Positions 8,188 to 48,678 of a DNA stretch of 64,000 nucleotides are shown here, piece by piece; within the stretch, counting starts at the first letter, position 1, and the number at the start of each line of letters is the position of its first letter. The notes below the pieces were generated by a model. It saw only the letters and a list, made by a program, of their open reading frames with translations, was not told the origin of the DNA and searched no databases. This DNA is from a bacterium. Its GTDB lineage: Bacteria; Patescibacteriota; Minisyncoccia; Phycocordibacterales; Phycocordibacteraceae. Location: positions 768,001-832,000 of the forward strand of contig JBBCGK010000001.1 of the NCBI GenBank assembly GCA_037200965.1, written 5' to 3'. The translations under genes were made by a program, and so were the position numbers.

Positions 8188-8291
8188 CTTGTCCACACCG
8201 CGAATGCTTGAACGGGACAGGTGCTGCTAGACTCAAGAGTGTTCCGGTGTTGCGCACCGCATCTGTCCCGGGGACGATTAATTCTCGTCTC

Positions 8292-32344: not shown

Positions 32345-32345
32345 A

Positions 32346-33095
32346 TCATTCGCTGTAGTGTTTGGAGCTTTCGGCGAGAAGCGGAGCCCAGATAAGGCGG
32401 TTCAGCATGAAGACGAGGACGAGTATCGCGAGCGTTCCGGCGACCGTCGTCTGGCTTATGCCTTCCGTCCCGGCGGTCTTTATGAACGCGCCGAACCCGG
32501 TCGTGTCCGCGATGATCTCGGCACCGATGACCGCCTCCCAGCCGATCGCGATGCCGACGATGGAGCCCGTGAGGATGGCGGGGAAAGAGAGCGGGGCGAG
32601 ATAGTAGCAGATGCGGCGCCAGCCGTTCGCGCCGAAGATGGTCGCGGCGTCGTTTAAGTCGGCGTGTACGGTGCGTATCGCGGTCAGGGTCGAGAAGAGG
32701 ATCGGCCACACGATCGAACTCACGGCGAACAGTATGATCATCTCGTCCGTGAAGCCGAAGAAGTAGATGAAGATGGGGATGAGCGCGAAGGACGGCACAT
32801 TCTGGAGGACGTCGAAGAGGGGAAAGAGGAAGTCACTGAAGCGGCTCCAGCCTACAAGGAGCCCAAGCGCCGCCCCGAGCGCGAGCGCTATGACGTACGC
32901 GAGCGCGAGGCGGTACGTGGATCGTACGAGCGCTATGGCAAGCGTTGCCCAGTCTACGTTTGCGAAGTATCCGAAGACGCCGAATCCGATCGCGACGACC
33001 GCTATCGCGCCCACGATCGCCCATGCATGCCGGGCGTGCTTCGTGTGCGCCCGGTGTATGGCTTTCGTTGCCGGGTGCGCGAGGCTTCGTATCAT
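32346..33095 (-). CDS. ABC transporter permease (SsuC/TauC-like binding-protein-dependent transport family).
   Basis: 6 TM helices with an EAA-like loop, adjacent to the ATPase. No substrate-binding protein gene at this locus. Confidence 0.8.
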   Translation of the reverse strand: MIRSLAHPATKAIHRAHTKHARHAWAIVGAIAVVAIGFGVFGYFANVDWATLAIALVRSTYRLALAYVIALALGAALGLLVGWSRFSDFLFPLFDVLQNVPSFALIPIFIYFFGFTDEMIILFAVSSIVWPILFSTLTAIRTVHADLNDAATIFGANGWRRICYYLAPLSFPAILTGSIVGIAIGWEAVIGAEIIADTTGFGAFIKTAGTEGISQTTVAGTLAILVLVFMLNRLIWAPLLAESSKHYSE

Positions 33096-33168: not shown

Positions 33169-33242
33169 TGCCAGATCGTCTAAAGGTAGGACTCGAGACT
33201 CTGAATCTCGCTATCTAGGTTCGAATCCTAGTCTGGCAGCCA
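33169..33242 (+). tRNA. tRNA-Gln (anticodon CTG), CCA encoded.
   Basis: Acceptor TGCCAGA/TCTGGCA; anticodon stem CGAGA/TCTCG with loop CTCTGAA; T-arm CTAGG-TTCGAAT-CCTAG; G-CCA 3' end. Confidence 0.75.
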
Positions 33243-33398
33243 ATTTGAACTCTAAGCCTCCAGCCTTCAATATGAATGACGGAAAGCTTCAAACGGTTTT
33301 AAAAGGCGGTGCATCAAGGCAGGACTGAAAAGTCTCTAAAAGAAAACTTTAACGTGCACAACCTCCTCGAAAGAGGACGGAAAAGTAAGGGCAAGGCA

Positions 33399-35291
33399 AT
33401 GAAAATGGATATGAACAAACAAAGCTCAAACAATAAAAAAGTACACCTCACCTCCGCCAATCTCTCCGAGGAGAAGCTGTTTGAGCTACGCCGCATCCTT
33501 CCCGAAGCGTTCAGCGAAAACAAGATTGACTGGGAGAAGCTCCGCACCGTTCTTGGTGACGCAGTAGACGCCCATATCGAGAAGTTCGGCTTTACCTGGG
33601 CAGGAAAAAGCAACGCTATCAAGAATGTTTTGATACCAAGCAAAGCCACACTCAACCCCGCTCCCGACGAGAGCGTGAAGTTCGATGAAAGCGAGAATCT
33701 CTTTATCGAAGGCGACAACCTCGAAGTCTTGAAGCTCTTGCAAAAAGCGTACTTCGAGAAGGTGAAGATGATTTATATAGACCCGCCATACAACACGGGC
33801 GGCGACTTCGTGTATAAGGACAACTTTGCCGCACCGCTCGACAACTATCTCAAGCAGACCGGCCAGAAGAACGGCAACGGCGAGCATCTCACAACCAACA
33901 AGGAGACCAACGGCCGCTTCCACAGCGACTGGCTTTCAATGATGTACCCACGCCTCAAGCTCGCGTGGAATCTTTTGCGTGATGATGGAGTGATATTTGT
34001 TTCGATTGACGATAACGAAGTGCATCATTTGCGAATACTAATGAATGAGATTTTTGGTGAGGAAAACTTCATCACTAATTTTGTTTGGCACTCTAGTACA
34101 GGTGGTGGTATCAGAAGCAAGTTTGCAAACCAGTCTCATCAATACGTTCTATGCTATGCAAAGAGTGTAGAAGACGTTGAGATGTTCTATGCGCCTCTTT
34201 CTGAAGATGCGAAGAAGCAATATAAGAAAGAGGATGAAAAAGGAGTCTATCGGGAGAAGGATTTTGCTTGGAAAAACTCATCGTGGGGAGCAAATCAAAA
34301 ATACTTCATCGAGTGTCCTGATGGTGAAAAAGCGAGACCAAAGGACGGGTATCTTTACCGCTTCATCGAACCAACTTTCAAGGAGAGTCTGGCAAATAAT
34401 ATGGTTGTCTTCAAAGAAGCAAGAAATAGTCCACTGGTAAATGAAAAAGGCGAGCAATCAAAATGGAACATCTATATCAAAAAGTATTTAGGTGATGGGA
34501 CAGGTGCTCCTTCATCAGTCATTCCGCGAGATTTAGTAGGAATCAATAATGAAGGCACTACAGAACTCAATGAACTGTTTGGTTCGAGTTTGTTTGAAAG
34601 CCCGAAGAATGTCCGGCTTTTGACATACCTACTCTCGTTAGCAGATAGCGATGATGGCGACATAATCCTCGATTTCTTTGCTGGCTCTGGTAGCACCTCT
34701 CACGCAGTGATGGCTCTGAACCAAAAGGATGGAATCAATAGAAAGTGGATTGTGGTTCAACTTCCAGAAAAGACTGACACGGATAGTGCCGCGTACAAAG
34801 CTGGATACAAAACCATTGCTGAACTTTCTGTAGAACGCATACGTCGCGCCGCGAAAAAGCTGGATGTCCAAGACGGCTTCAAGGTATTTAGACTGGCAGC
34901 ATCAAACTACCCAGAGAATACTTTTGAGTTCGACCCAGACAAGGCCGAGGAAGAGAACAAGGCGGCCTTCGAGGATTATTTGAAGCAAGCAAAGCGCGCC
35001 AAGCTTATTGACGACCTAGACGAGACGAGCGTCATCTACGAAAACATCGTCAAGGAAGGATTCTCGCTCAACTCCAAGATTCAGGAAGGCGTGCCAGGAA
35101 ACAACAAGGTCTACACCATCACCGACGGCGACCGGCAGTTTTCTATCTGCCTCGACCGTTCGATTGATGACACGACCGTAAAGAACATCACGGAGTGGGC
35201 TAAAGGAGCGACCTTTATCTGCTTCGATAATGCGCTCTCTGACAGCCAGAAAGCAAACCTCGGCCTCCACGTGGAGCTGAAAACGATATAA
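33399..35291 (+). CDS. mod: Type III restriction-modification system methyltransferase subunit (Mod; N6-adenine MTase).
   Basis: DPPY catalytic motif (IYIDPPYNTGGDFVYKDNF) and SAM-binding FxGSG (DFFAGSGST). Directly upstream of, and 3 nt from, a res-like helicase/endonuclease gene. Start taken at MKMDMNK (33399). GC is lower than the host. Confidence 0.85.
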   Translation: MKMDMNKQSSNNKKVHLTSANLSEEKLFELRRILPEAFSENKIDWEKLRTVLGDAVDAHIEKFGFTWAGKSNAIKNVLIPSKATLNPAPDESVKFDESENLFIEGDNLEVLKLLQKAYFEKVKMIYIDPPYNTGGDFVYKDNFAAPLDNYLKQTGQKNGNGEHLTTNKETNGRFHSDWLSMMYPRLKLAWNLLRDDGVIFVSIDDNEVHHLRILMNEIFGEENFITNFVWHSSTGGGIRSKFANQSHQYVLCYAKSVEDVEMFYAPLSEDAKKQYKKEDEKGVYREKDFAWKNSSWGANQKYFIECPDGEKARPKDGYLYRFIEPTFKESLANNMVVFKEARNSPLVNEKGEQSKWNIYIKKYLGDGTGAPSSVIPRDLVGINNEGTTELNELFGSSLFESPKNVRLLTYLLSLADSDDGDIILDFFAGSGSTSHAVMALNQKDGINRKWIVVQLPEKTDTDSAAYKAGYKTIAELSVERIRRAAKKLDVQDGFKVFRLAASNYPENTFEFDPDKAEEENKAAFEDYLKQAKRAKLIDDLDETSVIYENIVKEGFSLNSKIQEGVPGNNKVYTITDGDRQFSICLDRSIDDTTVKNITEWAKGATFICFDNALSDSQKANLGLHVELKTI

Positions 35292-35293
35292 CT

Positions 35294-37924
35294 ATGAAGT
35301 TCAAGTTTGACGCAAACCAAGATTTTCAAATAAACGCAGTCAACGCCATCGTTGGCGTCTTTGAAGGTCAGCCGAAGCGTCAAAGTGTGGTAGTAAATGT
35401 GCCCGCACTTTCCGTTTCCGGCTCATTGCCGCTCCAAACTACATACGGCATCTATCCGAACGAGCTGACGCTTTCCGACGAGGAGGTGTTTGCCAACGTC
35501 TGGAAGATTCAAGAGCAAAACAAAATCGGCAATGGCGGCACGGTTGAGGAGTACGACTTTTCTATCGAGATGGAGACGGGTACGGGTAAGACGTATGTGT
35601 ACCTTCGTACCGTCTTTGAACTCAACAAGCAATACGGATGGAAGAAGTTTATCGTTCTCGTGCCGTCCGTCGCCATCCGCGAGGGCGTCATCAAGACGCT
35701 CCAAATCACCAAAGACCACTTCGCCGAGCTGTACGACAACGTGCCGTACCGCTTCTACGAGTACCAGTCCAAGAACATCTCGCAGGTGAAGCGCTTTGCG
35801 GAATCCAGCAACCTGGAGATTATGGTGATGACGGTAGGTGCGTTCAACAAGGACGCGAACGTGCTCTATGCCGCCCGCGACCAGATGCAGGGCGAGCAGC
35901 CTATCAGCTACATCCAGCGCAGCAACCCCGTCCTCATCCTCGACGAGCCGCAGAATATGGAAGGTGAAGCGACGAAGGAGGCGCTCAAGAACTTCAACGC
36001 GCTTGCACGCCTGCGATACTCCGCGACGCATCGCAATCCGTACAACCTCATGTACCAGCTCACGCCGTTCGATGCGTATCAGCTCGGCCTCGTAAAGAAG
36101 ATTGAGGTGTATTCCGTTACGGATGACGACACCGGCATCTCGCGCCCGTCGCTCAACCTCATCTCCGTTGAATCCGGCAAGGCGCTCAAGGCAAAGTTAG
36201 AGGCCATCGTGAAAGATGCCGACGGCGCATTGAAGCGCAAGAAGCTCACCGTCAAACAGAACGACGACCTCGCGCAGAAGACCGGCAACGACGTATACGC
36301 CGGCTATATCGTGGACGAGCTTGACGCCGATGCGCCAGACCTCGGGCAGATTGGTAGGATTCGCTTTCGCAACAACGTGGAGATTCGCCAGGGTGAAGGC
36401 GTAGCAAACAACAACGAGCAAGTGATGCGCGAGCAGATTGAGCAGACCATCCGCCGCCACTTCGAGAAACGCAACCAGCTCCGCGATATGGGCATCAAGG
36501 TGCTCTCCCTCTTTTTCATAGACAAGGTAGACAACTACGTTCAATCAGACGGGTTTATCCGCTCTGCGTTCATAGCCGAGTTCAATCGCCTCAAGAAAGA
36601 CTATGGCGCTGACGGCATGGACGTGGATACCGTCCACAAGGGATATTTCGCCAAGCGCGGCGAGGAGTATTTGGAGCGAGAGTCCAGCATCGCCGAGAAC
36701 CAGGAAGCATACGAGCTGATTATGAAGGACAAGGAGCGCCTGCTTTCCTTCGATGAGCCGACGGAGTTCATCTTCTCGCACTCCGCACTCAAGGAAGGAT
36801 GGGACAACCCAAACATTTTCAATATCTGCACCCTGCGCGAGACCGTTTCAGTCATCCGCAAGCGCCAGGAGATTGGCCGAGGTATGCGCCTCTGCGTCAA
36901 TCAGGACGGAGAGCGTATTTTCTTGCGCAGCGTCAACCTGCTCTCCGTGATTGCAAACGAGAGCTATACGGAATACGTCTCATCGCTCCAGGGCGAATAC
37001 GAGGAGGACGGTATCTACAAGTCTGCGCCGTTGCCGAACAATGCCAAGCGAAAGACCACGGTGAAGCTCAAGAAAGATTTTGATAAGGACACGGACTTTG
37101 CTGGTATCTGGGAACGCATCTCGAAGAAGACCCGCTATGTCGTGCAGGTTGATAGCGAGCGCGTCATCGAAGCGTCCGCAAAGCAGATTGCGAAGCTCCA
37201 TCTCGCAAAGCCCAAGATGCGCGTCGAGCGCGCGGGCGTGAACATCGCGGCCGAAGGCATCACCGCAAACATCGTAGGCACCCGTGCCGAGGATTTGAGC
37301 CAGACCAAACGCACCATTGACCCTATCGAACTCATCAAAAACGAGACCAAGCTGACGCGCCACACGGTCGCGGAGATTTTGGCGAAAGCGGACAATACCG
37401 ACTCCTTCCTCAAGAATCCCGAACGCTTCTGCTTCGAGGCAACGCGCATCATCAAGGCCGAGCTGGTGAAGGATTACGTTTCCCAGATTCGCTATGAGGT
37501 ACTGCCGGAGCAGTATGACCTCAAGCAGTTCGAGGACATCCCGAGCTACAAGGACGCGACGCACAAGGTGAACAACTCCATCTACGACGCCATCGTGTAT
37601 GACTCCGACGTGGAGAAGAACTTTGCCGTCGCCCTCGATGCCGACGAGCGCGTGAAGCTCTTTATCAAGATGCCCAACTGGTTCAAGGTGAACACGCCTA
37701 TCGGCGGCTACAACCCCGACTGGGCAATCGTTACGGCCAAGCGAGACCTCCAGGGCAATGAGGAGAAGGAGCGCGTGTATTTCGTGATTGAGACGAAGGG
37801 CGACATCTCCAACATGCGCGAGAGCGAAGGACAAAAGATTGCTTCCGCCAAAAAGCACTTTGAAGTCATCGAGGTGAACTACAAGGAGGTCGAGAATTAT
37901 GGACAGTTTGCTGAACAACTATGA
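35294..37924 (+). CDS. res: Type III restriction enzyme Res subunit (SF2 helicase + endonuclease).
   Basis: Helicase motif I METGTGKTYV and motif II ILDEPQN, further SF2 motifs, and a C-terminal nuclease region. About 876 aa. Confidence 0.85.
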   Translation: MKFKFDANQDFQINAVNAIVGVFEGQPKRQSVVVNVPALSVSGSLPLQTTYGIYPNELTLSDEEVFANVWKIQEQNKIGNGGTVEEYDFSIEMETGTGKTYVYLRTVFELNKQYGWKKFIVLVPSVAIREGVIKTLQITKDHFAELYDNVPYRFYEYQSKNISQVKRFAESSNLEIMVMTVGAFNKDANVLYAARDQMQGEQPISYIQRSNPVLILDEPQNMEGEATKEALKNFNALARLRYSATHRNPYNLMYQLTPFDAYQLGLVKKIEVYSVTDDDTGISRPSLNLISVESGKALKAKLEAIVKDADGALKRKKLTVKQNDDLAQKTGNDVYAGYIVDELDADAPDLGQIGRIRFRNNVEIRQGEGVANNNEQVMREQIEQTIRRHFEKRNQLRDMGIKVLSLFFIDKVDNYVQSDGFIRSAFIAEFNRLKKDYGADGMDVDTVHKGYFAKRGEEYLERESSIAENQEAYELIMKDKERLLSFDEPTEFIFSHSALKEGWDNPNIFNICTLRETVSVIRKRQEIGRGMRLCVNQDGERIFLRSVNLLSVIANESYTEYVSSLQGEYEEDGIYKSAPLPNNAKRKTTVKLKKDFDKDTDFAGIWERISKKTRYVVQVDSERVIEASAKQIAKLHLAKPKMRVERAGVNIAAEGITANIVGTRAEDLSQTKRTIDPIELIKNETKLTRHTVAEILAKADNTDSFLKNPERFCFEATRIIKAELVKDYVSQIRYEVLPEQYDLKQFEDIPSYKDATHKVNNSIYDAIVYDSDVEKNFAVALDADERVKLFIKMPNWFKVNTPIGGYNPDWAIVTAKRDLQGNEEKERVYFVIETKGDISNMRESEGQKIASAKKHFEVIEVNYKEVENYGQFAEQL

Positions 37925-38169
37925 ACTTCTATGGAGTCTTTATCGGGATAGACAGATACGCCTCTCCAAGTATCAACATGTTCGTGGACGAAGTGGCGGC
38001 AAACCGGAAGCTCGACACCGACAAGGTTGCGGCGCTCGCTGATGGCCGCACCTACGTTGGCACGGATGCCGTGAGCAACGGGCTGATTGACGGCATCGGC
38101 AGCATCCCCGAAGCGTCCGACTATCTCACTCAACAGATTGGTGAGCAGGCGTCTGTGTGTTGGTACTAA
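37921..38169 (+). pseudogene. Possible 3' remnant of a signal peptide peptidase A (S49, sppA) gene.
   Basis: ADGRTYVGTDAVSNGLIDGIGSIPEASDYL resembles the SppA C-terminal G-R-V-W-T-G..A...GL-V-D..G motif. Only 82 codons, beginning exactly at the res stop. Confidence 0.3.
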
Positions 38170-38174
38170 AAATT

Positions 38175-38699
38175 ATGAACCTCTACGTCATCGCAGCAAT
38201 CATCATCGCCCTCGTCATCGTACTCGCTATACTCAAGGCGGTTGTTGAAGGCAGTGGTGGAGACAAGGAAAAGTCGAAGTACCGCTACACTCGCAAACAG
38301 TTTTTCCTTACCCGCGCCGAGCACGAGTGCTATGACGCCCTCGTTGCAGCGGTTGGCGATAAGTATTACGTCTTCGCGCAGGTACACCTTCCGACCATTC
38401 TCGATAACAAGGTGAAGGGGCAAGATTGGCGTGCCGCGCTTGCGCACGTCAGCCGCAAGTCCGTTGACTTCGTGCTCTGCGACAAGGCATACATTTCGCC
38501 GAAGCTCGCCATTGAGCTGGACGACAAGAGCCACGAGCGACCCGACCGGCAAGAACGGGACCGAGAAGTTGAGCGTATCTTGAGTGATGCAGGACTACCG
38601 CTTCTTCGACTGGAGAATCGCGGGGCGTTCAATACTGCGGAGCTGCTACAGAGGATTGATGATGCAGTGAAAGGTTTTGGTGAAAAAACCTCCTCCTAG
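38175..38699 (+). CDS. DUF2726-like (restriction-endonuclease-fold / NERD-like) protein with N-terminal TM.
   Basis: LTRAEHECYDAL ... YYVFAQVHL ... VDFVLCDK ... AIELDDKSH ... E..RD pattern, recalled from DUF2726 proteins found in defence islands. Confidence 0.55.
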   Translation: MNLYVIAAIIIALVIVLAILKAVVEGSGGDKEKSKYRYTRKQFFLTRAEHECYDALVAAVGDKYYVFAQVHLPTILDNKVKGQDWRAALAHVSRKSVDFVLCDKAYISPKLAIELDDKSHERPDRQERDREVERILSDAGLPLLRLENRGAFNTAELLQRIDDAVKGFGEKTSS

Positions 38700-39100
38700 A
38701 GAGGGCATCCCCCGCCGAAAGGTCGGAAGCAAAAAGGAAACTACCACCACCCAGATTCCATATTTTCGTAGAAAACATTGAAGATGCACGGGGTATACCC
38801 CTCTGATGTACCTCTGCGTGTCTTCTGCTACAGAATAAGCACTAGAAAGCACACAGTGCCGGATAAAGGGAACACTGGTAAAGCAAGGCCAGGCGCGCGA
38901 CAGTGCTCCTGGCCTTGTGCGGCAGTGGGGTGGCTATGCGGCTACTACCGAGAGTAATTGCTGCATCTGCTGGAGAGAAACGGTAGGATATGGGAACATC
39001 CAGCCAGTTGATAGTTCGTAGTTCCTCCCTCCAAGCCAGCCAACTTGAGGCAGGTTCGGTAGTCCGAGGTGCATCAAAATCGTCTGTTACAATTTTCGTA

Positions 39101-39634
39101 ATGAAAACCATCCTTGTCATTCGACATTCTCATTGGGATGGGCAAACAGATACTCTCAGCCTGGAAGGTATAGCTGATTGCGAAGCAAAGAAGACCACTC
39201 TTGGATCTTTTACTACAGTTATTGCCTCTCCCTTCAATCGCACGGTAGAAGCGGCTCGGCTCCTAAGTGGTAATGATCCAGTTGTCGATGACCGAGCATC
39301 TATGCTCGCCTTAACACCGGAAGAGGCTGCCTGGCTGAAGGAGGCTCGCAAGAACTCTCCGCTCGGAGTGGCGGGGGTTATTTTCGGTCGACCAGATTTT
39401 CTAGAACCAGTAAAAGTCGCTGGAGAAAAGTGTCTTTCGCTTATAGAAGAGACGCTCGAAAAGTTACCTCTTGATGGGAGAGCACTTATTGTCTCGCATG
39501 ACGGGACTATGGTTGCAGTCGAGAAGTTACTCAAAAATGAACCGTTTTCTGGTCCGTTAGACCATACCTACGGAAACCTTGAAGGATTTGAGGTTGATGC
39601 TAACCTTAAATTCACTAAGCTCGCCTTCACATGA
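39101..39634 (+). CDS. Histidine phosphatase superfamily (phosphoglycerate-mutase-like) protein.
   Basis: ILVIRHSHWDG aligns with the RHG catalytic motif; about 178 aa. Confidence 0.5.
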   Translation: MKTILVIRHSHWDGQTDTLSLEGIADCEAKKTTLGSFTTVIASPFNRTVEAARLLSGNDPVVDDRASMLALTPEEAAWLKEARKNSPLGVAGVIFGRPDFLEPVKVAGEKCLSLIEETLEKLPLDGRALIVSHDGTMVAVEKLLKNEPFSGPLDHTYGNLEGFEVDANLKFTKLAFT

Positions 39635-40608
39635 TCGTCCCTGCAAAAGAACTCCTAGATTTTGCCTACAAGAAATTCTCTGTGGGTGCCTATAACATCC
39701 ACAACCTCGAGCAGTTGATGGGACTCCTCTATGGAAGCCAAAAATCAAACGCGCCCTTTATCGTTCAGGCGTACCCGAGCACCCTCAACTACACGGACGC
39801 TAGCATGCTCGAAGCCCTTTTCCATGAGGCAGACAAGCTTTTTCCTGACCTGATTTTTGCCGTCAGTATTGATCATGGCGATGAAGCTACATGTATGAGA
39901 GCTATTGATTCGGGAGCGTACTCACACGTGATGATAGACGCTTCAATGGAAACCTTTGAGAAGAATATCGAGATTACGAAACGTGTCGTCGATCATGCGC
40001 ATTCTCGCGGCGTATCCGTGGAAGGTATGGTAGGAAAACTCGGTGGTCTGGAAAAGCACATGAAAGTTCTCGACGTATCCGAAGTGCAATTGACCACCGT
40101 TGAACAGGCACGAGAGTTTGCGGAGAGAACTGGCTGCGACAGTCTTGCTGTGTCTATCGGTACACTACATGGTGCTAACAAGGCTCCAGACGGCATACCT
40201 CGAAAGGTAGACCTCGATCGTCTCAAGGAAATAGGTGAAGCGCTCGAAGGTACTCCACTTGTTATGCACGGTTCGTCCTGCCTGCCACAGGAGGAAGTAA
40301 GACGGGTAGACGCCGCAGGAGGAAAGCTTGAACGCGTCGGAGGAATGGATGAAACACAGCAAAGTGAGGTACATAAACTTGGAGTTGCTCAGATAAATGT
40401 AAACAGCGATGGCCTTCTTATCTGGACGCGCTCGATCAGAGAATATCTGAGGGACTATCCAGGCGTGATTGATTTACGTGAGTCGGGCAAGGCTTTTATG
40501 CAGGAGTATGCGAGTTTCATAGCTCACAAGAATGATGTGTTCGGCTCATCCGGCAAACTTGATGCGTTGACAGAACACTACGAAACCCCATGGACATTAA
40601 TGAACTAG
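39631..40608 (+). CDS. fba: Class II fructose-bisphosphate aldolase family protein.
   Basis: VSIDHGDE (zinc-binding His), HGSS, and a GTLHG motif. About 325 aa. Confidence 0.85.
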   Translation: MIVPAKELLDFAYKKFSVGAYNIHNLEQLMGLLYGSQKSNAPFIVQAYPSTLNYTDASMLEALFHEADKLFPDLIFAVSIDHGDEATCMRAIDSGAYSHVMIDASMETFEKNIEITKRVVDHAHSRGVSVEGMVGKLGGLEKHMKVLDVSEVQLTTVEQAREFAERTGCDSLAVSIGTLHGANKAPDGIPRKVDLDRLKEIGEALEGTPLVMHGSSCLPQEEVRRVDAAGGKLERVGGMDETQQSEVHKLGVAQINVNSDGLLIWTRSIREYLRDYPGVIDLRESGKAFMQEYASFIAHKNDVFGSSGKLDALTEHYETPWTLMN

Positions 40609-41348
40609 AAAAAATCGATACGACCGTTATCAGCGACCTAATCGTCTCGCGTCTTCCATTGCCACTGCAAACATCACAAAAAGAGAATTTACTCTCGCCC
40701 AAGCCTCAAGCGTTACAAGACGTCATTGCTGATATCGAAAAGATAGAACATGAATGGAAGCTTGATACTGCTGACGAAGGTCACACTTACGGACGTAAGC
40801 ATGCTGGTGAGACTATTCAACTTTGGTCTGTGCCGCCTAAGAGTGCGCAAGTACTGGAGAATCTCGTTGTACTTACGGGCGCTAAGACCATTCTTGAAAT
40901 AGGAACCTCAGCAGGATACGCTGCGCTTTTCTTAGCTCATGGTGCCAAAGCAAATGGCGGACATGTTTATACGATCGAGCTTCTTAAGGAGAAAGCTGAC
41001 CTTGCTCGGGGTAATTTTGATAAGTCTGGCCTTGATAACATCACGCTTATAGAAGATGAGGCGTCAAAAGTCTTGAGCGCTTGGGATAATGGGAAAATAG
41101 ACTTTGTTTTTCTCGATGCCGATAAGGAAAACTACGGAAAATATTTTGACCAACTTGTACCACTTATGAATATTAGTGGTCTTATCGTAGCTGATAACGT
41201 GAATGACTACGGTCACATGATGGAAGATTATTTGCAGAAGGTAAGTGGTACGCATCTTCCAAAGACGAGAACTGATCACAGGGTTAAGAGCTATTACCTA
41301 GCAATGCTTGAAAATGGGTTGATGGTTACTCAGAAGATATCTGAATAG
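40590..41348 (+). CDS. Class I SAM-dependent O-methyltransferase (catechol-OMT-like, family 3).
   Basis: ILEIGTSAGYAALFLA, DFVFLDADKENY and the LIVADNV motif. Confidence 0.8.
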   Translation: MDINELEKIDTTVISDLIVSRLPLPLQTSQKENLLSPKPQALQDVIADIEKIEHEWKLDTADEGHTYGRKHAGETIQLWSVPPKSAQVLENLVVLTGAKTILEIGTSAGYAALFLAHGAKANGGHVYTIELLKEKADLARGNFDKSGLDNITLIEDEASKVLSAWDNGKIDFVFLDADKENYGKYFDQLVPLMNISGLIVADNVNDYGHMMEDYLQKVSGTHLPKTRTDHRVKSYYLAMLENGLMVTQKISE

Positions 41349-41526
41349 TTTTATTATTGAGAATTATTTTACTTTTCAAGCATCCTGAGAAATTAGGTCC
41401 AGAAGTACATATTTGGACTTCTCAAAAGGTAGTTTGGGCTCATATCTGCGACAGCCGACCTCAGCGAGAGCAGGACTAGCGTTCCAACACCGTCCCAGAC
41501 TCCCGCTCGATAAGCTTACTTTCTTC

Positions 41527-42126
41527 ATGGAGAAAATAGAGCAGCTGCGGGATGAGGTGCACAATCTATATGCCCAAAAACTTCCTGGCCGTGCTGACTG
41601 GGCTGACTGGATCTATGATAAGCATGTCGTTCTTGTTGGCAATGAAGCAAGGAAGATAGCCGAAATGTACGGAGGAAGTCCGGAGCTTGCAGAGGCTGCT
41701 GGACTTTTGCACGATGTGGCCGACGCAGTAATGAAGCGGCAGGATCCGAATCATGAAAAGGAAAGCCTGCGTATTGCACGGGAGATGCTGCAGAAGACCG
41801 GATTTGGCGACAAGGAGATAGCCATAGTGGTAGACGATGCGATCGCGAAGCATAGTTGCCATGGAGAGACTCGGCCCGTCTCTGCAGAGGGGAAGGCAAT
41901 GGCAGCGGGAGACGGTGTCGTTCATCTCACAAGTGATTTTTATAAGATTGCCGAGGCGGGGAAACTTGGTCATAAATCACCACGAGAGGTTGCAGAGTGG
42001 GCCCTGCCAAAACTAGAACGCGATTTCACCAATAAGATTGCCTATGATGATTTAAGGGAGGAGATACGGCCAGATTACGAACAACTTAGGAAACACTTTC
42101 AGGATCTAGCCTCGGCCGGGGTGTAG
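41527..42126 (+). CDS. HD domain phosphohydrolase.
   Basis: H...LLHDVAD motif. Start at MEKIEQL (ATG 41527). Confidence 0.7.
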   Translation: MEKIEQLRDEVHNLYAQKLPGRADWADWIYDKHVVLVGNEARKIAEMYGGSPELAEAAGLLHDVADAVMKRQDPNHEKESLRIAREMLQKTGFGDKEIAIVVDDAIAKHSCHGETRPVSAEGKAMAAGDGVVHLTSDFYKIAEAGKLGHKSPREVAEWALPKLERDFTNKIAYDDLREEIRPDYEQLRKHFQDLASAGV

Positions 42127-42179: not shown

Positions 42180-43300
42180 TGCACAAGTTCAGATACATAT
42201 GGCACTCCTCCTAACTGAGGAGCGATGCGTCAATTCAACATACTGAAGGATACCGAGGGCTGGTTGTATATGCGCGAGCGGAGCATACGCTTCCTGCATA
42301 TGAGGAACAACGACGAGGTGCGGCATCGGGTCAAGGTGCTGGACTTCTGGAAAACGCACGGGGAGCGTGCGGCCAGGGACGCCTTCAGCGTCTCTCGCCG
42401 CACGCTCTTCCGTTGGCAGGCGAAGCTCGACCGCGCGCACGGGAGACTCGACGCGCTCGATCCCAAGTCGACGGCACCGAAGAATCGGAGGAGACGCATC
42501 GTCCTCCCCGAGGTCGAGACGTTCATCCTGAAGGAGCGCGCGGAGCATCCGAGGCTCGGCAAGGCGAAGCTCGCAGCCCTGCTGCGGGAGGACGGGTACC
42601 GGGTATCCGAATCGTATGTCGGGAGGGTCGTCGCGGACCTCAAGAGGAGAGGGCTGCTGCTCCCGCACAAGCCGCTCTCATACTATGCGCGAAGCGGCAC
42701 GTATCGGGAGAAGCCCGTATCGAAGCGCACGAAGCTGCGCAGGCGGCACAAGCGGGGCATGGAGCTCGACACCGTCGTCCGCTTCATCGACGGCGTGAAG
42801 CGGTACGTCCTGACCGCCATCGATGTCGAGAAGAAGTTCGCCTTCGCCGGCGCGTATACCGTCCACTCCTCCGCGTCCGCCGCCGATTTCCTCGCGCGCG
42901 TCATCGCGGTGTGCCCCTTCGACATCACGGAGCTCCAGACCGACAACGGCCCGGAGTTCGCCAAGAACTTCGAGGCGGGGTGCCGCGCCCTCGGCCTCAC
43001 CCACTTCAATACGTTTCCCCGCAGCCCGAAGATGAACGCGTTCGTCGAGCGGTTCAACCGGACGATCTCGGAGGACTGCATCATGCTCAATCGGCCGCTC
43101 CTGCGGGACGACGTCGCGGCATTCAACCTGAAGCTGGTCGACTGGCTGCTCTGGTACAACGCCCGGCGTCCGCACGAGTCCCTGGGACAGGTGCCGCCGC
43201 TCCGGTATATACTCTCCTCATTAACGGCCGAGGAGTGCCAGAGGTACTGGACGCGTACACATCCTTGACAGAATTTAGACCAGGCTGCATTGTGGCGTCG
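42180..43300 (+). mobile_element. IS481-family insertion sequence (boundaries approximate; terminal inverted repeats not resolved).
   Basis: A single transposase ORF whose GC content differs from the left flank. I could not confidently pair terminal IRs by eye. Confidence 0.5.
42225..43268 (+). CDS. IS481-family DDE transposase (integrase core).
   Basis: N-terminal HTH, then an rve-type core with TDNGPEF and a downstream catalytic Glu (FNRTISED). High GC, unlike the lower-GC island to its left. Confidence 0.85.
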   Translation: MRQFNILKDTEGWLYMRERSIRFLHMRNNDEVRHRVKVLDFWKTHGERAARDAFSVSRRTLFRWQAKLDRAHGRLDALDPKSTAPKNRRRRIVLPEVETFILKERAEHPRLGKAKLAALLREDGYRVSESYVGRVVADLKRRGLLLPHKPLSYYARSGTYREKPVSKRTKLRRRHKRGMELDTVVRFIDGVKRYVLTAIDVEKKFAFAGAYTVHSSASAADFLARVIAVCPFDITELQTDNGPEFAKNFEAGCRALGLTHFNTFPRSPKMNAFVERFNRTISEDCIMLNRPLLRDDVAAFNLKLVDWLLWYNARRPHESLGQVPPLRYILSSLTAEECQRYWTRTHP

Positions 43301-43355: not shown

Positions 43356-43616
43356 GTGAAGGACCCCCCTTGTTACAGGGGTATTGTCAGGAACATTCTT
43401 CCTGGCAACGACCCGTACGCCGTCGTTGAATGCGACGGCGTGCCTGACCTCGTTACCGTTTCTCTGGGCGCACAAAGAGGCGTTTGGGAAGACTCAAGCC
43501 TGCCAGTGGTAGGCTCTGCAGTGATCCTCAGCGACGTTCAGTGCGTTCATGGGAAGTGGCGGGCCTACAACGCCCGGTTGTTCAAACCATCAGATGGAAG
43601 AGGAGTCCATGGCTAA
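43356..43616 (+). CDS. Small hypothetical protein (GTG start with AAAGGAG RBS).
   Basis: AAAGGAGAAATCGAAT-GTG spacing is ideal. 86 aa, no known motif. Confidence 0.35.
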   Translation: MKDPPCYRGIVRNILPGNDPYAVVECDGVPDLVTVSLGAQRGVWEDSSLPVVGSAVILSDVQCVHGKWRAYNARLFKPSDGRGVHG

Positions 43617-44262
43617 CAAAGGAGTCATGGGGATTCTTGAAAGTATCGGGGCAGTCGAAGTCGTGAATGACGGAGACCCACCCCCACCACCTTCAAGTTT
43701 CCCACCCACCGCAGCGCCAACACCGGTCCTGCAGCCAAGTGTGGCTGTACCGGCTGCCGGCACGGCCGACCAGGGTATGGTCGGTAAAATCCGTGGGGCT
43801 GTCACCAGCCGCACGCATTCGCCTGGATTTGCGATTTTTCTGGCAAATTTCGAGAAGGCAAAACAAGCCTTCCCGAACGACCCTCGAAATGCCGCAGCCG
43901 CAGCGCTTGTCTTTTCTTCGCAGACCTCGCAAGAGATCGGCGCAGAACTGAGTCGCTCTGTGGCGGCATCTCTGGCCGAAGCCGGATCGCAGATCAATGT
44001 CGACATCGCGCAACAGCGCGAGAGGTTGGCAGGCCAGCTCGATGGCGAAGAAAGCAGTCTCGACGGTGAGATTCACCGATTCGAGGCGGATCTCGCCGCC
44101 ATCCAGAAAAAGCTCGACGATGCGAAAGGCGCGAAAGCGCAGATCGCGAGTCGTCGTGCTGATGGCAGGGCAGCCATCGACTCTCGTCTCGCAACGGCAC
44201 TCGCCAGTCTGGCAGTCGTTCGTGACGAGATCGCAACCATCAAATCAATATTGCCGTCGTAA
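43609..44262 (+). CDS. Hypothetical protein: Pro-rich N-terminus + coiled-coil.
   Basis: ATG at 43609 (MANKGVMGIL). The C-terminal half has heptad-like periodicity (LDGEIHRFEADLAAIQKKLDDAKGAKAQIASRRADGRAAIDSRLATALASL). Confidence 0.45.
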   Translation: MANKGVMGILESIGAVEVVNDGDPPPPPSSFPPTAAPTPVLQPSVAVPAAGTADQGMVGKIRGAVTSRTHSPGFAIFLANFEKAKQAFPNDPRNAAAAALVFSSQTSQEIGAELSRSVAASLAEAGSQINVDIAQQRERLAGQLDGEESSLDGEIHRFEADLAAIQKKLDDAKGAKAQIASRRADGRAAIDSRLATALASLAVVRDEIATIKSILPS

Positions 44263-44294: not shown

Positions 44295-45326
44295 ATGGCT
44301 CAACAGTCGAACATGAATGACTTCTTCGACCAGCTCCCGACTCCCCCACGGGAGAAGGCGATACGCTGGGGGTTCTATGCCGGTGTGAGCTTGCTCGCGC
44401 TTGGCGTGGGACTCAAGATCATGCCTCCTGTCAACAATCTGCTCGACATGATGCTTCATGGCGCGTGGACTCTCGGCGAGATCGGTCTGGTCGGCGCCAG
44501 CATCGCAGTCGGCACAGTGGCTTTTACCAGCCTCTGGCCGTCGTACCGTCGCTTCATGGAAAGTGTCGCGCGGCGCACAACCGTCGCGATCTATGGCGAC
44601 GATCCGATCACGCCGCTCCACATGTGGCTCGCGGAAGTGAGCTCGGATTGCGAACAGATCGAAGCAGCGCAAAGTGAAGTCAGCGGCATCATCGAGGAGA
44701 ACAAGAAGGCCGCCTCTGACAATCTGACGCTGCTTGCGCAATCCGATGCCAGGTTTGCTTTCGCGGTACGGAAGCACGGCGAAGAGAGTGACCAAGCCAG
44801 AAACGCCTCCGCGGAATCTGGTGGCTACAAAGATCGGGCCGAAAATGCAGACCGCATCAACGTCCCGCTCATTGAGCTTTATGAACTGCTTGATGAGATC
44901 GCGAAAGCGAATCGTCATGTCGAGCATGAAGCCAAAATCGCCATCGAGACAGCGGAGCAGGAATGGCGTGCCGCCCTCAAGGCAGAGATTGCCATGGGCG
45001 CGGCGACTCGCACTCTCAACAAGCGCAGTGAGCGGTATGTCAACGCCACCCTGGCGTTCGGCATCATCCGCCAGAAGTACGCCGGCAACTTCGGCAAGCT
45101 TCGTTCGCTGCGTCGCCTATCGGAGCAGGCCATCAATTCGGCGGCTCTGGAAGGAGGTGTCAAACTGCAGGAATCGCTTGCCCGCCTCCGTGCGGAAAGC
45201 AAGTCGCTTCTCGGTCACGCCCCCGCGCTTGCCGTCCCGGATTTCTCCGGAAAGGGCAGGCAGAAGGTTCCGGTTCCAGCTGGTTCCGGGCCCGCGTCCC
45301 TTCGTCTGTTCGACGAAGAGAAGTGA
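44295..45326 (+). CDS. Hypothetical membrane protein (2 TM) with long cytoplasmic coiled-coil.
   Basis: TM helices at about residues 25-45 and 60-80, then a helical Glu/Ala/Arg-rich region. Resembles TelA / toxic-anion-resistance-like architecture only loosely. Confidence 0.45.
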   Translation: MAQQSNMNDFFDQLPTPPREKAIRWGFYAGVSLLALGVGLKIMPPVNNLLDMMLHGAWTLGEIGLVGASIAVGTVAFTSLWPSYRRFMESVARRTTVAIYGDDPITPLHMWLAEVSSDCEQIEAAQSEVSGIIEENKKAASDNLTLLAQSDARFAFAVRKHGEESDQARNASAESGGYKDRAENADRINVPLIELYELLDEIAKANRHVEHEAKIAIETAEQEWRAALKAEIAMGAATRTLNKRSERYVNATLAFGIIRQKYAGNFGKLRSLRRLSEQAINSAALEGGVKLQESLARLRAESKSLLGHAPALAVPDFSGKGRQKVPVPAGSGPASLRLFDEEK

Positions 45327-45369
45327 AATAACGCGTAACTCAGGAAAACAGTAACCAAGGAGAAAAGAA

Positions 45370-46926
45370 GTGGAACACCAGATTACCCTCAAAGGAAGAA
45401 TCTACCTCGGACTCGGAATCGCTGCGCTAGCGGTAATTCTGATCTGGGTCCTTCAGAACTTCATCCCGACCTCGTGGAAGGATGCAGTCACCGAGACAGT
45501 CGCGCCGGGCGGAAGCCCGACGACGCTTTCCAGTGACGGTTCGGACGTGATCAACGTCTGTGTCGTCACCTGGGGTGGCTACGTGGGTGGCGAGTACTTC
45601 AACGGCGGCTTCAAGCCGTCGGAGCAGTCCCGCTACTACAAGCAATACGGCCTGAAGGTCAAGTTCCAGATCATGGACGAGTTCGTTCCCTCGCGGGATG
45701 CGTGGAAGTCCGACAAGTGTCATCTTCTCTGGGCGACCGTCGACGCCTTCACCACGGAGGCGGCGAACCTCCAGAGAGCGGGGTACGACCCCCGGTTTGT
45801 CTTCCAGGCGGACTGGTCGCGCGGCGGCGATGCTATCGTCGTCGGCCCCGGCATCAATTCGATGCGGGACCTGCGTGGCAGGACGATTGCGGTGGCCTAC
45901 GGGACACCGTCACACACGTTCTTGCTGCGCATGCTCGAATCGGCAAACATGCAGAAAGGAGACGTCACCCTTATCGATACCGGAAGCGCTATCGATGCGG
46001 CCAAGGCGTTCCAGACGCGCAGCGCAGATGCGGCTGTGGTCTGGTCTCCGGATGACGTGGCCAGTGTCAGGGCGATTCCTGGCGCCAAGGTCCTCGTCAG
46101 TTCCAAGCAGGCATCGCACATCATCGCCGATGGCTTCTTCGCGAAGGAGGAATACATCGCGGCACACCGTGAACAACTCCAGCACCTCATCGAAGGCTGG
46201 ATGATCGGTGCCGCCGAGATCAACTCCGATCCCGCGGCGAAGCAGAAGGCTGCAACCATCCTGGCCGACGGTCTCAATCTGTCGGTCGACGATGCTCTGG
46301 CAGCCATCAACAACGTCCGGCTCACCACGTTCGGTGACAACCTGGCGTTCTTCGGCCTCGACAGCAGCTATACCGGCATGACTGGTGAACGGCTCTTCCG
46401 CGACAGCGGCGCGCTGTACCAGAAGAACGGGTACGCAAATCTGGTGCCGAGCGTGCCGGACTGGCGTACGGTCATCGACCTGAGCCTGCTGCGTAACATC
46501 AGCCTGACGGGCCCGGAACATGCGGCCGAAAGCACGGTTCGTTTTGCCGTGCCGACGACCGCAGATGTCAAGGCCAATGCCTTCTCGTCGAAGGCGCTGT
46601 CGGTCCAGTTCTCAATCGGGTCCGCAGTGCTGACTGACGAGGCGAAGGCGAACATCGCGACCAACTTCGTGCCGACGGCACAGTCGTTCGCGAATGCGCG
46701 CATTCGTATCGAAGGCAACACCGACAGCACGGGCAGCCGTGCGATCAATGTCGATCTGTCCCGCCGGCGTGCCCAGGCAGTCGCAGACTACCTGGGCAGC
46801 TTCGGTTTCGATCCCAACCGCTTCATCGTGGCGGGGAACGGGCCGGACAAGCCAGCATGTGGTACGAGCGATGCCGGGTGCCTGGCACAGAATCGTCGTA
46901 CCGACTTCGAGCTGCTGAACAACTAG
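45370..46926 (+). CDS. Fusion protein: ABC substrate-binding protein (NMT1/SsuA-like) + C-terminal OmpA-like peptidoglycan-binding domain.
   Basis: N-terminal TM/signal, then an SBP-like domain (VCVVTWGGYVGGEYF ... RGRTIAVAYGTPSHTFLL ... VVWSPD). C-terminal NTDSTGSRAINVDLSRRRAQAVADYL...RRTDFELL matches the OmpA C-terminal motif (NxxLSxxRA). Immediately upstream of the cognate permease and ATPase. Confidence 0.65.
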   Translation: MEHQITLKGRIYLGLGIAALAVILIWVLQNFIPTSWKDAVTETVAPGGSPTTLSSDGSDVINVCVVTWGGYVGGEYFNGGFKPSEQSRYYKQYGLKVKFQIMDEFVPSRDAWKSDKCHLLWATVDAFTTEAANLQRAGYDPRFVFQADWSRGGDAIVVGPGINSMRDLRGRTIAVAYGTPSHTFLLRMLESANMQKGDVTLIDTGSAIDAAKAFQTRSADAAVVWSPDDVASVRAIPGAKVLVSSKQASHIIADGFFAKEEYIAAHREQLQHLIEGWMIGAAEINSDPAAKQKAATILADGLNLSVDDALAAINNVRLTTFGDNLAFFGLDSSYTGMTGERLFRDSGALYQKNGYANLVPSVPDWRTVIDLSLLRNISLTGPEHAAESTVRFAVPTTADVKANAFSSKALSVQFSIGSAVLTDEAKANIATNFVPTAQSFANARIRIEGNTDSTGSRAINVDLSRRRAQAVADYLGSFGFDPNRFIVAGNGPDKPACGTSDAGCLAQNRRTDFELLNN

Positions 46927-47004
46927 ACGCAGCTTGAATAGCTTGAGCCTTGGGGGAGGTGGTCGAGAGATCACCTCCCCTTTCTGTTAGAGGAGACAAA
47001 GGGT

Positions 47005-47811
47005 ATGCAAGAGAGGCTGACGAATTTGTTCGAGTTGCGCGGTAACGCGTCGGCTCGGCAAAATACGTTGCTTGGCATCGTGGGAGTGTCCCTCTGGTTG
47101 TTCTCATGGTGGCTCTTCGCCACCCTCGGGATTCTGCCGCGGCAGATTGCTCCCGGACCGTTTGAGGTCCTCGGGGTGGTACCGGACATGCACTTCCATG
47201 ACATGCTTGTGCGCAATGTCTGGTTTAGCTTCGAGATGAATCTCCTGGCGACCTTCATTGCGATCGTGATCAGTGTACCCATGGGGCTGGCGCTGGGCCT
47301 GCTGCCGTTCTTCCGCGGCATGTCCACGCCATTCTTCGTCGGGCTGCGCTTTCTGCCGCTGCCAGTGGCCACGATCCTGTTCATGGCGTGGCTGGGTATC
47401 GGCTACACCATGAAAACGGCCTTCCTCACGGTGGCCATTGCCGTCTATCTGGTGCCAACCGTGATCCAGCGGGTCGACGAAGTGCGTCAAGTCTATGTCG
47501 ACACGGTGCGGACACTCGGCGCGAATGAATGGCAGCTGGTCCGCTACGTCTATCTTCCCGATGTGTTCTCGCGCGTCTGGGACGATATCGTGATCCTGGT
47601 CGGTCTCTCGTGGACCTACATCAGTTTCATCGAGCTCATCAACAAAGGCGAGGGCGGCATCGGCGCGCTGATCTATTCGGCTCAACGCACCCATAGCATG
47701 GAGAAGTACTATGCACTCCTGCTGATCATTATGTTCGTGGCGTTCATCCAGACAGCCATCTTCAAACTGATCGGCCGGGTGCTCTTCCCCTATAAGCGCA
47801 TCGGAGGCTAG
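47005..47811 (+). CDS. ABC transporter permease (SsuC/TauC-like).
   Basis: 6 TM helices, a conserved EAA-like loop, and operon context. Confidence 0.8.
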
Positions 47812-47813
47812 CC

Positions 47814-48617
47814 ATGACTGGTGTGGAATTCGTCAACACCGACCTCCCCGATATCATCGAATTGCGGGGGGTTACCCAGCGCTATGGGCAGAGGACGGTT
47901 CTGGACGGACTCAACCTGCTCATTGAAGACAAACCCGATCAGGGCCAGTTCGTAGTCCTGCTCGGCATCTCCGGCTCCGGCAAGTCAACGATCTTCCGCT
48001 ATCTCAATGGTCTGCAGACGCCGACCAGCGGGGCGGTGCTGATCAAGGGCAAGCCGGTGTCAGAGTATGGTGCGGTCAGTACGGTATTCCAGGACTATTC
48101 GTCCTTGCCGTGGCGGACCGTGCTTCAAAACGTCGAACTTCCGCTCGTCTTCAAAAGCGTGAAGAAGAGGGAACGGCGTGAGCGGGCGCTCGAGATAATC
48201 GCCCGTGTGGGACTTAAGGGTCACGAGCATAAATACGCTCGTACCCCGACGCTCTCCGGCGGCCAGCTGCAGCGGGTCGCTATCGCGAGAAGCTTGATTG
48301 CAAATCCGGAGATCATCCTGATGGATGAACCTTTCGGCGCGCTTGACGGCATCACCCGCTTCGAAATGCAGCAGCTGCTCGCTGATCTGTGGAAGACTTC
48401 GCAGTCGACCATCGTCTTCGTCACGCATGACCAGCAAGAAGCGGTCTTCCTGGGCGACGACATCTATGTGCTGGATCCGCGGATCGGCAAGATCGGTTCG
48501 CGTATCCGTGTGGATCTTCCGCTCGTGCGGGACCTTTCCACCAAACGTGACCCGCGCTTCATGCAGCTGGTCACCGAGGTAGATATGGCTCTGATGGAGA
48601 CCAGTCTGCCGCGCTAA
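47814..48617 (+). CDS. ABC transporter ATP-binding protein (SsuB/TauB-like).
   Basis: Walker [10 protein letters not shown], signature [14 protein letters not shown], Walker [12 protein letters not shown]. Confidence 0.9.
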
Positions 48618-48646
48618 GAATTGTTATTTCTACTGCACCTTCAGAA

Positions 48647-48678
48647 GGCGGAGCCGCAAGCTCCGCTTTTCTTTTTAT
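48647..48678 (+). terminator. Rho-independent terminator after the ABC operon.
   Basis: GGCGGAGC-CGCAA-GCTCCGC followed by TTTTCTTTTTAT. Confidence 0.65.

Follow-up and report, generated by a model that had tools for sequence, protein, structure and literature searches.

An ABC importer binding protein fused to an OmpA-like domain belongs to a conserved five-gene cassette with a putative PspA-like protein

We studied a stretch of 64,000 nucleotides from a bacterium of the Patescibacteriota (Minisyncoccia; Phycocordibacterales; Phycocordibacteraceae), taken from NCBI GenBank assembly GCA_037200965.1 (contig JBBCGK010000001.1, positions 768,001 to 832,000 of the forward strand). This whole stretch is called the window below. 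At positions 45370..46926 it carries a gene for the substrate-binding protein of an ATP-binding cassette (ABC) importer, fused to an OmpA-like domain. We found that this gene is the third of five genes lying on one strand, with intergenic gaps of 32, 43, 78 and 2 nt, and we hold with high confidence both the fused architecture and the membership of the gene in a conserved cassette. The five genes, the parts of the fused protein and two terminator-like hairpins are listed here, with the source of each assignment in brackets.

43609..44262, + strand: gene 1, a soluble coiled-coil protein of 217 amino acids (neighbour-profile match)
44295..45326, + strand: gene 2, a putative PspA/Vipp1/ESCRT-III-like protein of 343 amino acids with two predicted N-terminal transmembrane helices (AlphaFold2, Foldseek)
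45370..46926, + strand: gene 3, the binding protein fused to an OmpA domain, predicted to be membrane-anchored, 518 amino acids (Pfam/NCBIfam, AlphaFold2, Foldseek)
45388..45462, + strand: predicted N-terminal signal-anchor helix of the gene 3 protein, residues 7-31 (AlphaFold2 and sequence)
45541..46539, + strand: class II periplasmic-binding-protein domain of the TauA/SsuA fold, residues ~58-390 (Foldseek, hhalign)
46579..46917, + strand: OmpA C-terminal-like peptidoglycan-binding domain, residues 404-516, with the putative diaminopimelate pair D452/R467 (Pfam, PDB profile search)
46952..46981, + strand: hairpin resembling a terminator (stem of 13 bp, T-rich tail), located in the 78-nt gap that separates genes 3 and 4 (consensus scan)
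47005..47811, + strand: gene 4, an ABC importer permease of 268 amino acids, BPD_transp_1, with its best score against TauC (Pfam, NCBIfam)
47814..48617, + strand: gene 5, an ABC ATPase of 267 amino acids, ABC_tran, with its best score against TauB/SsuB (Pfam, NCBIfam)
48644..48670, + strand: hairpin resembling a terminator (stem of 11 bp, T-rich tail), 27 nt past the ATPase stop (consensus scan)

The fused gene is a single unbroken reading frame of 518 codons, which starts with GTG and is preceded, 7 nt upstream, by an AAGGAG ribosome-binding site at 45357-45362. A preliminary description of this DNA had claimed that a binding domain and an OmpA domain are joined in this one gene, and a hidden Markov model search bore this out. 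Pfam NMT1 matched residues 161-289 with 40.2 bits (gathering score 20.5) and Pfam OmpA matched residues 414-501 with 55.7 bits and E 6.4e-15 (gathering score 27.2), both above their thresholds and in the same frame. The NxxLSxxRAxxV motif that had been read from the letters is also present, as N460-V-D-L-S-R-R-R467-A-Q-A-V471. We identified the identical 518-amino-acid protein on contigs of three independent assemblies. The best 120 homologues listed are co-linear with it and nearly all of them are 495-554 amino acids long, two being shorter (474 and 476); every one of these 120 carries the OmpA domain, and nearly all carry NMT1 too. AlphaFold2 modelled the whole 518-residue chain with a mean predicted local distance difference test (pLDDT) score of 87.4 and a predicted template-modelling score of 0.82. 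Because the same protein occurs in three assemblies, its homologues are co-linear and the model forms a single chain, we conclude that the fusion is genuine, and a frameshift or mis-assembly that would have joined two separate genes was ruled out on the same grounds.

In the AlphaFold2 model, the chain runs from the anchor helix through a disordered linker (35-57, pLDDT <50) into a two-lobed binding domain (~58-390), and then forms a mixed alpha/beta domain of four strands and three helices (404-516). No lipobox cysteine was found in the N-terminus of the protein, so the simplest reading is that this N-terminus is a signal anchor. A PDB profile search with the C-terminal domain returned OmpA-like domains at E 1e-23 to 1e-17, with 3TD3-5 among the best matches, and the NCBIfam models for YiaD, Pal and MotB match this domain as well.

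For comparison between genomes we used the best 80 genome loci; family counts were made over 81 related loci, in which all open reading frames were clustered all-against-all. D452 and R467 are conserved in 81/81, 15 residues apart, within the motif NTDxTGSxxxNxxLSxxRA. Their spacing equals that of D271 and R286, the diaminopimelate binders of the Acinetobacter OmpA domain (PDB 3TD3-5). MotB/PomB, TssL, YiaD and Pal share with gene 3 a homologous C-terminal domain with the Asp/Arg pair, putatively peptidoglycan-binding in gene 3, and MotB and TssL also share an anchor in the cytoplasmic membrane, predicted for gene 3, from which the protein extends to the wall. However, the task of the domain there is to anchor a stator, a secretion baseplate or the outer membrane, whereas here it is fused to the binding domain of an ABC importer. 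Among the other genes of the window are those for an M23 peptidase with a PG_binding_1 domain and for FtsEX; the source organism has peptidoglycan-related genes. The OmpA domain would not be needed to retain the protein, since the model gives the protein its own N-terminal membrane anchor.

The permease and the ATPase that the preliminary description had placed after the fused gene were confirmed by BPD_transp_1 and ABC_tran matches, and make up a type-I ABC importer. The three-gene unit starting at the fused gene, however, had to be extended to five genes, as about 70 of the 81 loci have kept two further genes upstream of it. The five families occur in 81, 71, 69, 68 and 65 of the 81 loci, the family of gene 1 in 71; the permease lies downstream of the binding-protein gene in 68 and the ATPase in 65, and the ATPase is 53-74% identical across phyla. 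Same-strand upstream neighbours of ~335-343 and ~215-240 amino acids were found in nearly every locus with enough upstream DNA. In a Bacteroidales genome, for example, genes of 213 and 343 amino acids precede the binding-protein gene, with the permease and the ATPase after it. Profiles built from the neighbours alone matched the window proteins at E 4.9e-40 (343 amino acids) and 2.2e-10 (217 amino acids). The loci with conserved upstream genes span Bacteroidota, the Candidate Phyla Radiation (CPR), Spirochaetia, Geobacter and Fibrobacter. Although the proteins encoded upstream share only 11-23% identity, their genes are kept in about 70 of the 81 loci, and the persistence of gene order despite such low identity argues for a functional link to the binding-protein gene rather than mere inherited synteny.

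The hairpin at 46952-46981 may be an attenuator or an mRNA stabiliser that sets an excess of binding protein over transporter, and the one at 48644-48670 likely marks the end of the operon; the total of such hairpins in the region, as found by the consensus scan, is not above the number in shuffled sequence. At the upstream border, an IS481-type transposase gene (HTH_32, rve and rve_3 domains) lies at 42225..43268, directly upstream of the cassette. One public contig with the cassette ends 380 nt before gene 1, about 40 nt past the transposase stop, which fits an assembly break at a repeat. An open reading frame of 86 amino acids (43356..43616) has its own AAGGAG site and overlaps the start of gene 1 by 8 nt. 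It is annotated in one public assembly and not in the source record, and it is not conserved in the closest locus (L005).

The preliminary description had called the tethering of a binding protein through an OmpA domain unusual, and had seen in it a fit to a cell envelope without a conventional periplasm or outer membrane. Neither claim survived the survey. A protein search gave 2,637 homologous clusters with E <= 0.001 among 8,000 scored candidates, and at least 554 species-representative genomes, in a scan of one genome per species, carry a relative. NCBI already has a product name for the fusion ('phosphate ABC transporter…'), and the Joint Genome Institute (JGI) calls it "NitT/TauT family … substrate-binding protein". 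The best 80 loci comprise 66 from Bacteroidota, among them the cultured Aquimarina, Tenacibaculum finnmarkense and Lacihabitans, and only 6 from CPR/Patescibacteria. The rest come from Fibrobacter, Turneriella, Spirochaetia, Caldithrix, Geobacter, Thiotrichaceae, an unclassified gammaproteobacterial metagenome-assembled genome (MAG) and one 'Nanoarchaeota' bin. Bacteroidota have an outer membrane. Given this distribution and the membrane anchor predicted for the protein itself, the architecture is not an adaptation to an envelope lacking an outer membrane; it is found mostly in outer-membrane bearers.

The cassettes closest to that of the window are from Paceibacteria. The binding/OmpA protein is about 50% identical across phyla, and its CPR members are 39-61% identical to each other and 41-54% to those of Bacteroidota, that is, no closer within CPR. 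Among the related loci, two MAGs of one cave metagenome, assigned to 'Turneriella parva' and 'Caldithrix' (L012 vs L013), encode binding proteins that are 92% identical, the copy of a 'Thiotrichaceae' MAG is 95% identical to a Bacteroidota copy, and one carrier is binned as 'Nanoarchaeota' (L041 and L019 are among such loci). These cases point to recent horizontal transfer or mis-binning.

We then compared the binding domain with receptors of known ligand. The best solved structures in Foldseek were TauA 6ssy (E 2.5e-16, target TM-score 0.80) and SsuA 2x26 and 3ksj, at 17-18% identity; target TM-scores across TauA/SsuA structures were 0.74-0.80, and hhalign against TauA gave a probability of 97.5%. 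The label 'SsuABC-like' in the preliminary description is therefore sound at the level of the fold. It did not extend to the ligand. The 518-amino-acid protein scored 67.5 against NCBIfam SsuA_fam (cut-off 163.5), 32.4 against taurine_ABC_bnd (cut-off 304) and 84 against the urea-type ABC_peri_uca (cut-off 334), and every NCBIfam transporter equivalog falls well short of its cut-off. Since these scores are so low, the binding protein is no orthologue of SsuA, TauA or the urea-type receptors. In TauA, E106 and D205 bind the amine, and Q30, G61, G79 and the main chain of T132 bind the sulfonate (PMC6906117). The numbering of that source was checked against the E. coli TauA sequence, and the positions were then mapped through hhalign onto the protein encoded here.

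TauA E106 (amine): D154, invariant in 81/81
TauA D205 (amine): D254, invariant in 81/81
TauA G79 (sulfonate): D125, invariant in 81/81
TauA T132 (sulfonate, main chain): P180, which has no backbone NH, invariant in 81/81
TauA G61 (sulfonate): F105, kept in 72/81
TauA Q30 (sulfonate): probably W68, a position beyond the hhalign range that was aligned by eye; W68 is invariant in 81/81

All 81 sequences keep W68, D125, D148, W149, D154, P180, S181, W225, D229, D254 and F256, and Y71, R317 and D323 are further invariant residues of the binding domain. Receptors for cationic amines, among them the polyamine and quaternary-amine binders, typically show such dense conservation of acidic and aromatic residues at and near the positions that contact the ligand in TauA. 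The two amine-binding positions of TauA thus remain acidic, whereas Asp, Pro and aromatic residues stand at its sulfonate positions. Judged by these residues, an amine, cationic or zwitterionic, is the likelier ligand, and a sulfonate, nitrate or phosphate the less likely one; both the NCBI product name and the 'SsuA-like' label are probably misleading as to the ligand. The likeness to TauABC/SsuABC of E. coli (TauA 6SSY, SsuA 2X26) lies in the binding-protein fold and in the permease and ATPase families. However, TauA and SsuA are free periplasmic proteins, whereas the protein studied here has a predicted membrane anchor and an OmpA domain; their operons encode desulfonating enzymes, and there are none here.

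For the gene 2 protein, AlphaFold2 (42-sequence alignment) gave a mean pLDDT of 62, with 77-91 in the hairpin. The model has hydrophobic helices at 18-53 and 58-100, a long hairpin of 105-161 and 166-238, shorter helices at 247-284 and 288-306, and then a disordered tail. Basic residues lie before the first and after the second transmembrane helix, and because they flank the transmembrane pair, the helical domain would be cytoplasmic by the positive-inside rule. When the PDB was searched with Foldseek, the five best matches were all Vipp1/PspA filaments (6zvr, 8qbw, 8qbs, 8qbr and 7o3w), with probability 1.0, target TM-scores of 0.53-0.61, ~220 aligned columns and E 4e-3 to 2e-2. PspA_IM30 (PF04012) is the Pfam family most often matched among the relatives of gene 2 (15/34, weakly, best E 4.4e-5). 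JGI labels several members of the family 'phage shock protein A', two of them with a precomputed PF04012 match. Among the membrane-remodelling proteins PspA/Vipp1 (IM30) and ESCRT-III (Snf7/CHMP), the predicted long hairpin, two shorter helices and flexible tail come closest to the Vipp1/PspA structures, as judged against the helix lengths of PspA/Vipp1 overall rather than helix by helix. PspA and Vipp1, however, are peripheral proteins held by an amphipathic helix, whereas the gene 2 protein would be integral through its two N-terminal helices; its sequence similarity to them is marginal and polymerisation only putative. With moderate confidence, we regard gene 2 as a likely membrane-integral member of the PspA/ESCRT-III superfamily.

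The ATG of gene 1 at 43609 is preceded by GAGGAG. Its product has an N-terminal motif (consensus LKSLF), a Pro-rich low-complexity linker, a helical domain and a C-terminal coiled coil. A PDB profile search with this 217-amino-acid family reached Vipp1/PspA at E 0.12 among many coiled coils, and hhalign of the gene 1 family against the gene 2 family indicated that they are unrelated (probability 7.5%). Short motifs that are conserved across phyla lie beside the disordered linkers, 'Y/L-x-x-LF' at the gene 2 C-terminus (45270..45326) and 'LKSLF' at the gene 1 N-terminus (43609..43660). They might serve for docking, as the MIM motifs do in ESCRT-III, or form helices that bind the membrane.

In 22 of the 81 loci, a tandem AAA+ ATPase of 622-634 amino acids directly follows the ABC ATPase (e.g. 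L029:4694-6562). Its carriers are mainly Aquimarina and some Bacteroidales, and its active AAA domain spans residues 390-520, followed by AAA_lid_6. An association of this kind had been predicted from comparative genomics (Popp et al. 2024, mSystems, PMC11237479, section 18, Table S3), with OGG56892.1 of Candidatus Handelsmanbacteria as the published example. Our literature search found only Popp et al. 2024 treating the system, and nothing on the NCBI product name or the assembly accession. As in the operons of Popp et al., a protein with an anchor, a binding domain and an OmpA domain is encoded in one operon with an ABC permease and an ABC ATPase, and a PspA/ESCRT-III-superfamily protein is adjacent, including a membrane-anchored one, for which the evidence here is moderate. 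Their example has a tandem inactive and active AAA+ ATPase, which is present in those 22 related loci and not in the 64-kb window. Since Popp et al. write that the AAA+ genes 'may occur' in PspA/Snf7-PBPB-OmpA ABC operons (PMC11237479), the tandem AAA+ ATPase is probably an optional feature of the operon type, and the cassette of the window is a shorter form of this computationally described type, without the AAA+ ATPase.

The window holds a second transporter of the same class at 31619..33095, which the preliminary description had correctly identified as a permease and an ATPase with no adjacent binding-protein gene. The permeases of this pair and of the cassette are 23-25% identical over part of their length and the ATPases 37%, and tblastn within the window found no paralogue of the 518-amino-acid binding protein that could serve the second pair. 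We identified 62 metagenome relatives of the pair (loci L087-L148) at 62-70% identity, many from 0.1-µm groundwater fractions. They adjoin pyrG and ftsX, and in the 25 loci that span 6 kb or more no conserved neighbour has the size of a binding protein. The suggestion that the second transporter shares the binding protein of the cassette is thus unsupported, because the permeases have diverged and the binding/OmpA gene comes with its own permease and ATPase. The second pair may work without a binding protein, or with one encoded elsewhere.

Next to this pair, a tRNA-Gln at 33169-33242 is followed by a stretch of lower G+C content up to 42126 (0.47-0.55 vs ~0.58-0.63 in the first 12 kb of the window). 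This stretch carries a type III restriction-modification system, made up of a 660-amino-acid methyltransferase with a DPPY motif (33309..35291) and an 876-amino-acid Res subunit with DEAD, ResIII and RE_endonuc domains (35294..37924), and the Res gene is followed by a DUF2726 gene, an aldolase and a methyltransferase. The region 33169..42126 looks like an integrated island. At the beginning of the window, two open reading frames, 178..3105 (975 amino acids) and 8184..11282 (1032 amino acids), each end in a C-terminal Peptidase_S74 domain. Peptidase_S74 is the intramolecular chaperone of endosialidase and tail-spike proteins, and these two could encode surface fibres or prophage-derived proteins.

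As the best overall explanation of the locus, we lean towards a fused gene that is central to a widespread five-gene cassette linking transport with envelope maintenance. The binding protein would sit outside the cytoplasmic membrane, with its N-terminal helix in the membrane and its OmpA domain fixed to peptidoglycan, and would there capture a small solute and pass it, or a signal, to the type-I ABC importer. The importer would in turn be coupled on the cytoplasmic side, functionally and probably physically, to a PspA/ESCRT-III-like scaffold and its coiled-coil partner, and the AAA+ ATPase, in the loci that have one, would presumably remodel this scaffold. The likeliest role would be envelope maintenance or membrane remodelling tied to solute uptake near the wall, rather than plain nutrient import. 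The functional coupling of the importer to the PspA-like protein and the ligand class are put forward only tentatively, and we hold them to be somewhat doubtful.

Several observations weigh against this explanation. The evidence that couples the importer to the PspA-like protein is gene neighbourhood, and the ligand class was read from an alignment to TauA at 17-25% identity, not from model coordinates. The gene 2 protein of the window matches no Pfam family at E <= 1, PspA included, and a PDB sequence-profile search with the 343-amino-acid family returned coiled-coil noise and no PspA. When both upstream families were aligned by hhalign to E. coli PspA alone, the probability was ~1.5%, a one-sequence template being uninformative; the PspA matches in plasmid records are nearly all enterobacterial, at ~93% identity, and yielded no diverse PspA alignment. 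The gene 1 family gave only generic coiled-coil matches in Pfam, NCBIfam and the PDB, and no assignable family. Gene order also differs from that of Popp et al.: theirs runs PspA, binding protein, permease, ATPase, membrane-anchored Snf7 and AAA+AAA, whereas that of the window runs coiled-coil protein, membrane-anchored PspA-like protein, binding protein, permease and ATPase, and their first gene is PspA, while gene 1 of the window is not assignable to it. Finally, the window has no homologue of the AAA+ ATPase (best tblastn E 0.15), and our literature search found no experimental work on any member.

Among the other explanations, a sensor or structural tether without net import is unlikely, in our estimate. 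The protein would report a wall-proximal ligand or the distance between wall and membrane, and the ATPase would drive or regulate a PspA-like polymer. Its two-point attachment, to membrane and to peptidoglycan, is like that of MotB or TssL-type inner-membrane OmpA proteins, the association with an ESCRT-III-like protein and an AAA+ ATPase is conserved, and the extreme conservation of the binding protein, which keeps ~50% identity from phylum to phylum and has dozens of invariant positions, suggests a universal ligand, e.g. a wall component. However, the permease is a canonical BPD_transp_1 subunit of a type-I importer, and the known mechanotransmitting ABC systems FtsEX, LolCDE and MacB use another fold.

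A related and bolder proposal, which we regard as doubtful, is that the cassette encodes no nutrient importer at all and instead forms a trans-envelope machine for membrane repair or remodelling. The wall-pinned protein would sense a cationic wall-derived ligand or the geometry between wall and membrane, the ABC cycle would nucleate or position a membrane-integral ESCRT-III-like polymer, and a Vps4-like AAA+ ATPase, in loci that have one, would recycle it. If true, Bacteroidota and the ultra-small CPR bacteria would share a bacterial ESCRT-III system that is connected to the cell wall.

A further explanation, in line with the 'SsuABC-like' label of the preliminary description, is an ordinary importer of a sulfonate, taurine, nitrate or a thiamine precursor, in which the wall tether would be incidental and the upstream genes unrelated neighbours. 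The TauA/SsuA fold, the best scores of permease and ATPase against TauC and TauB/SsuB, the typical order of binding protein, permease and ATPase, and a hairpin after the binding-protein gene, common in importer operons, all agree with it. We nevertheless consider it improbable, as two same-strand upstream genes stay with the importer across phyla despite their low identity, the transporter equivalogs are far under cut-off, the sulfonate positions of TauA are lost (G79 to Asp, T132 to Pro), and 22 loci continue with the tandem AAA+ ATPase. We rate a role in mobile anti-phage defence as very improbable indeed: the cassette lies just 3' of the IS481-type transposase, in a region that starts at the tRNA-Gln and holds the restriction-modification system and the DUF2726 gene, and PspA-like and AAA+ components are known in some defence systems, but a PADLOC scan of the five proteins gave only generic MotB/OmpA and generic ABC ATPase matches, the Bacteroidales cassette lies among housekeeping genes such as ribH, recF, ndk and dciA, and the G+C content of the cassette (0.59-0.60) agrees with that of the window's first 12 kb (0.58-0.63), unlike the low-G+C restriction island.

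Taken alone, the fusion would be a matter of routine annotation, and the interest of the locus lies in its gene context. A binding protein with a near-invariant cleft, apparently pinned to the wall, is encoded with its own ABC importer and nearly always with a putative membrane-integral PspA/ESCRT-III-like protein, from Bacteroidota to CPR. The carriers include the cultured Aquimarina, Tenacibaculum finnmarkense and Lacihabitans and, by MAG assignment, Fibrobacter succinogenes and Turneriella parva. Because cultured carriers exist, a link between an ESCRT-III-like protein, the cell wall and transport is directly testable.

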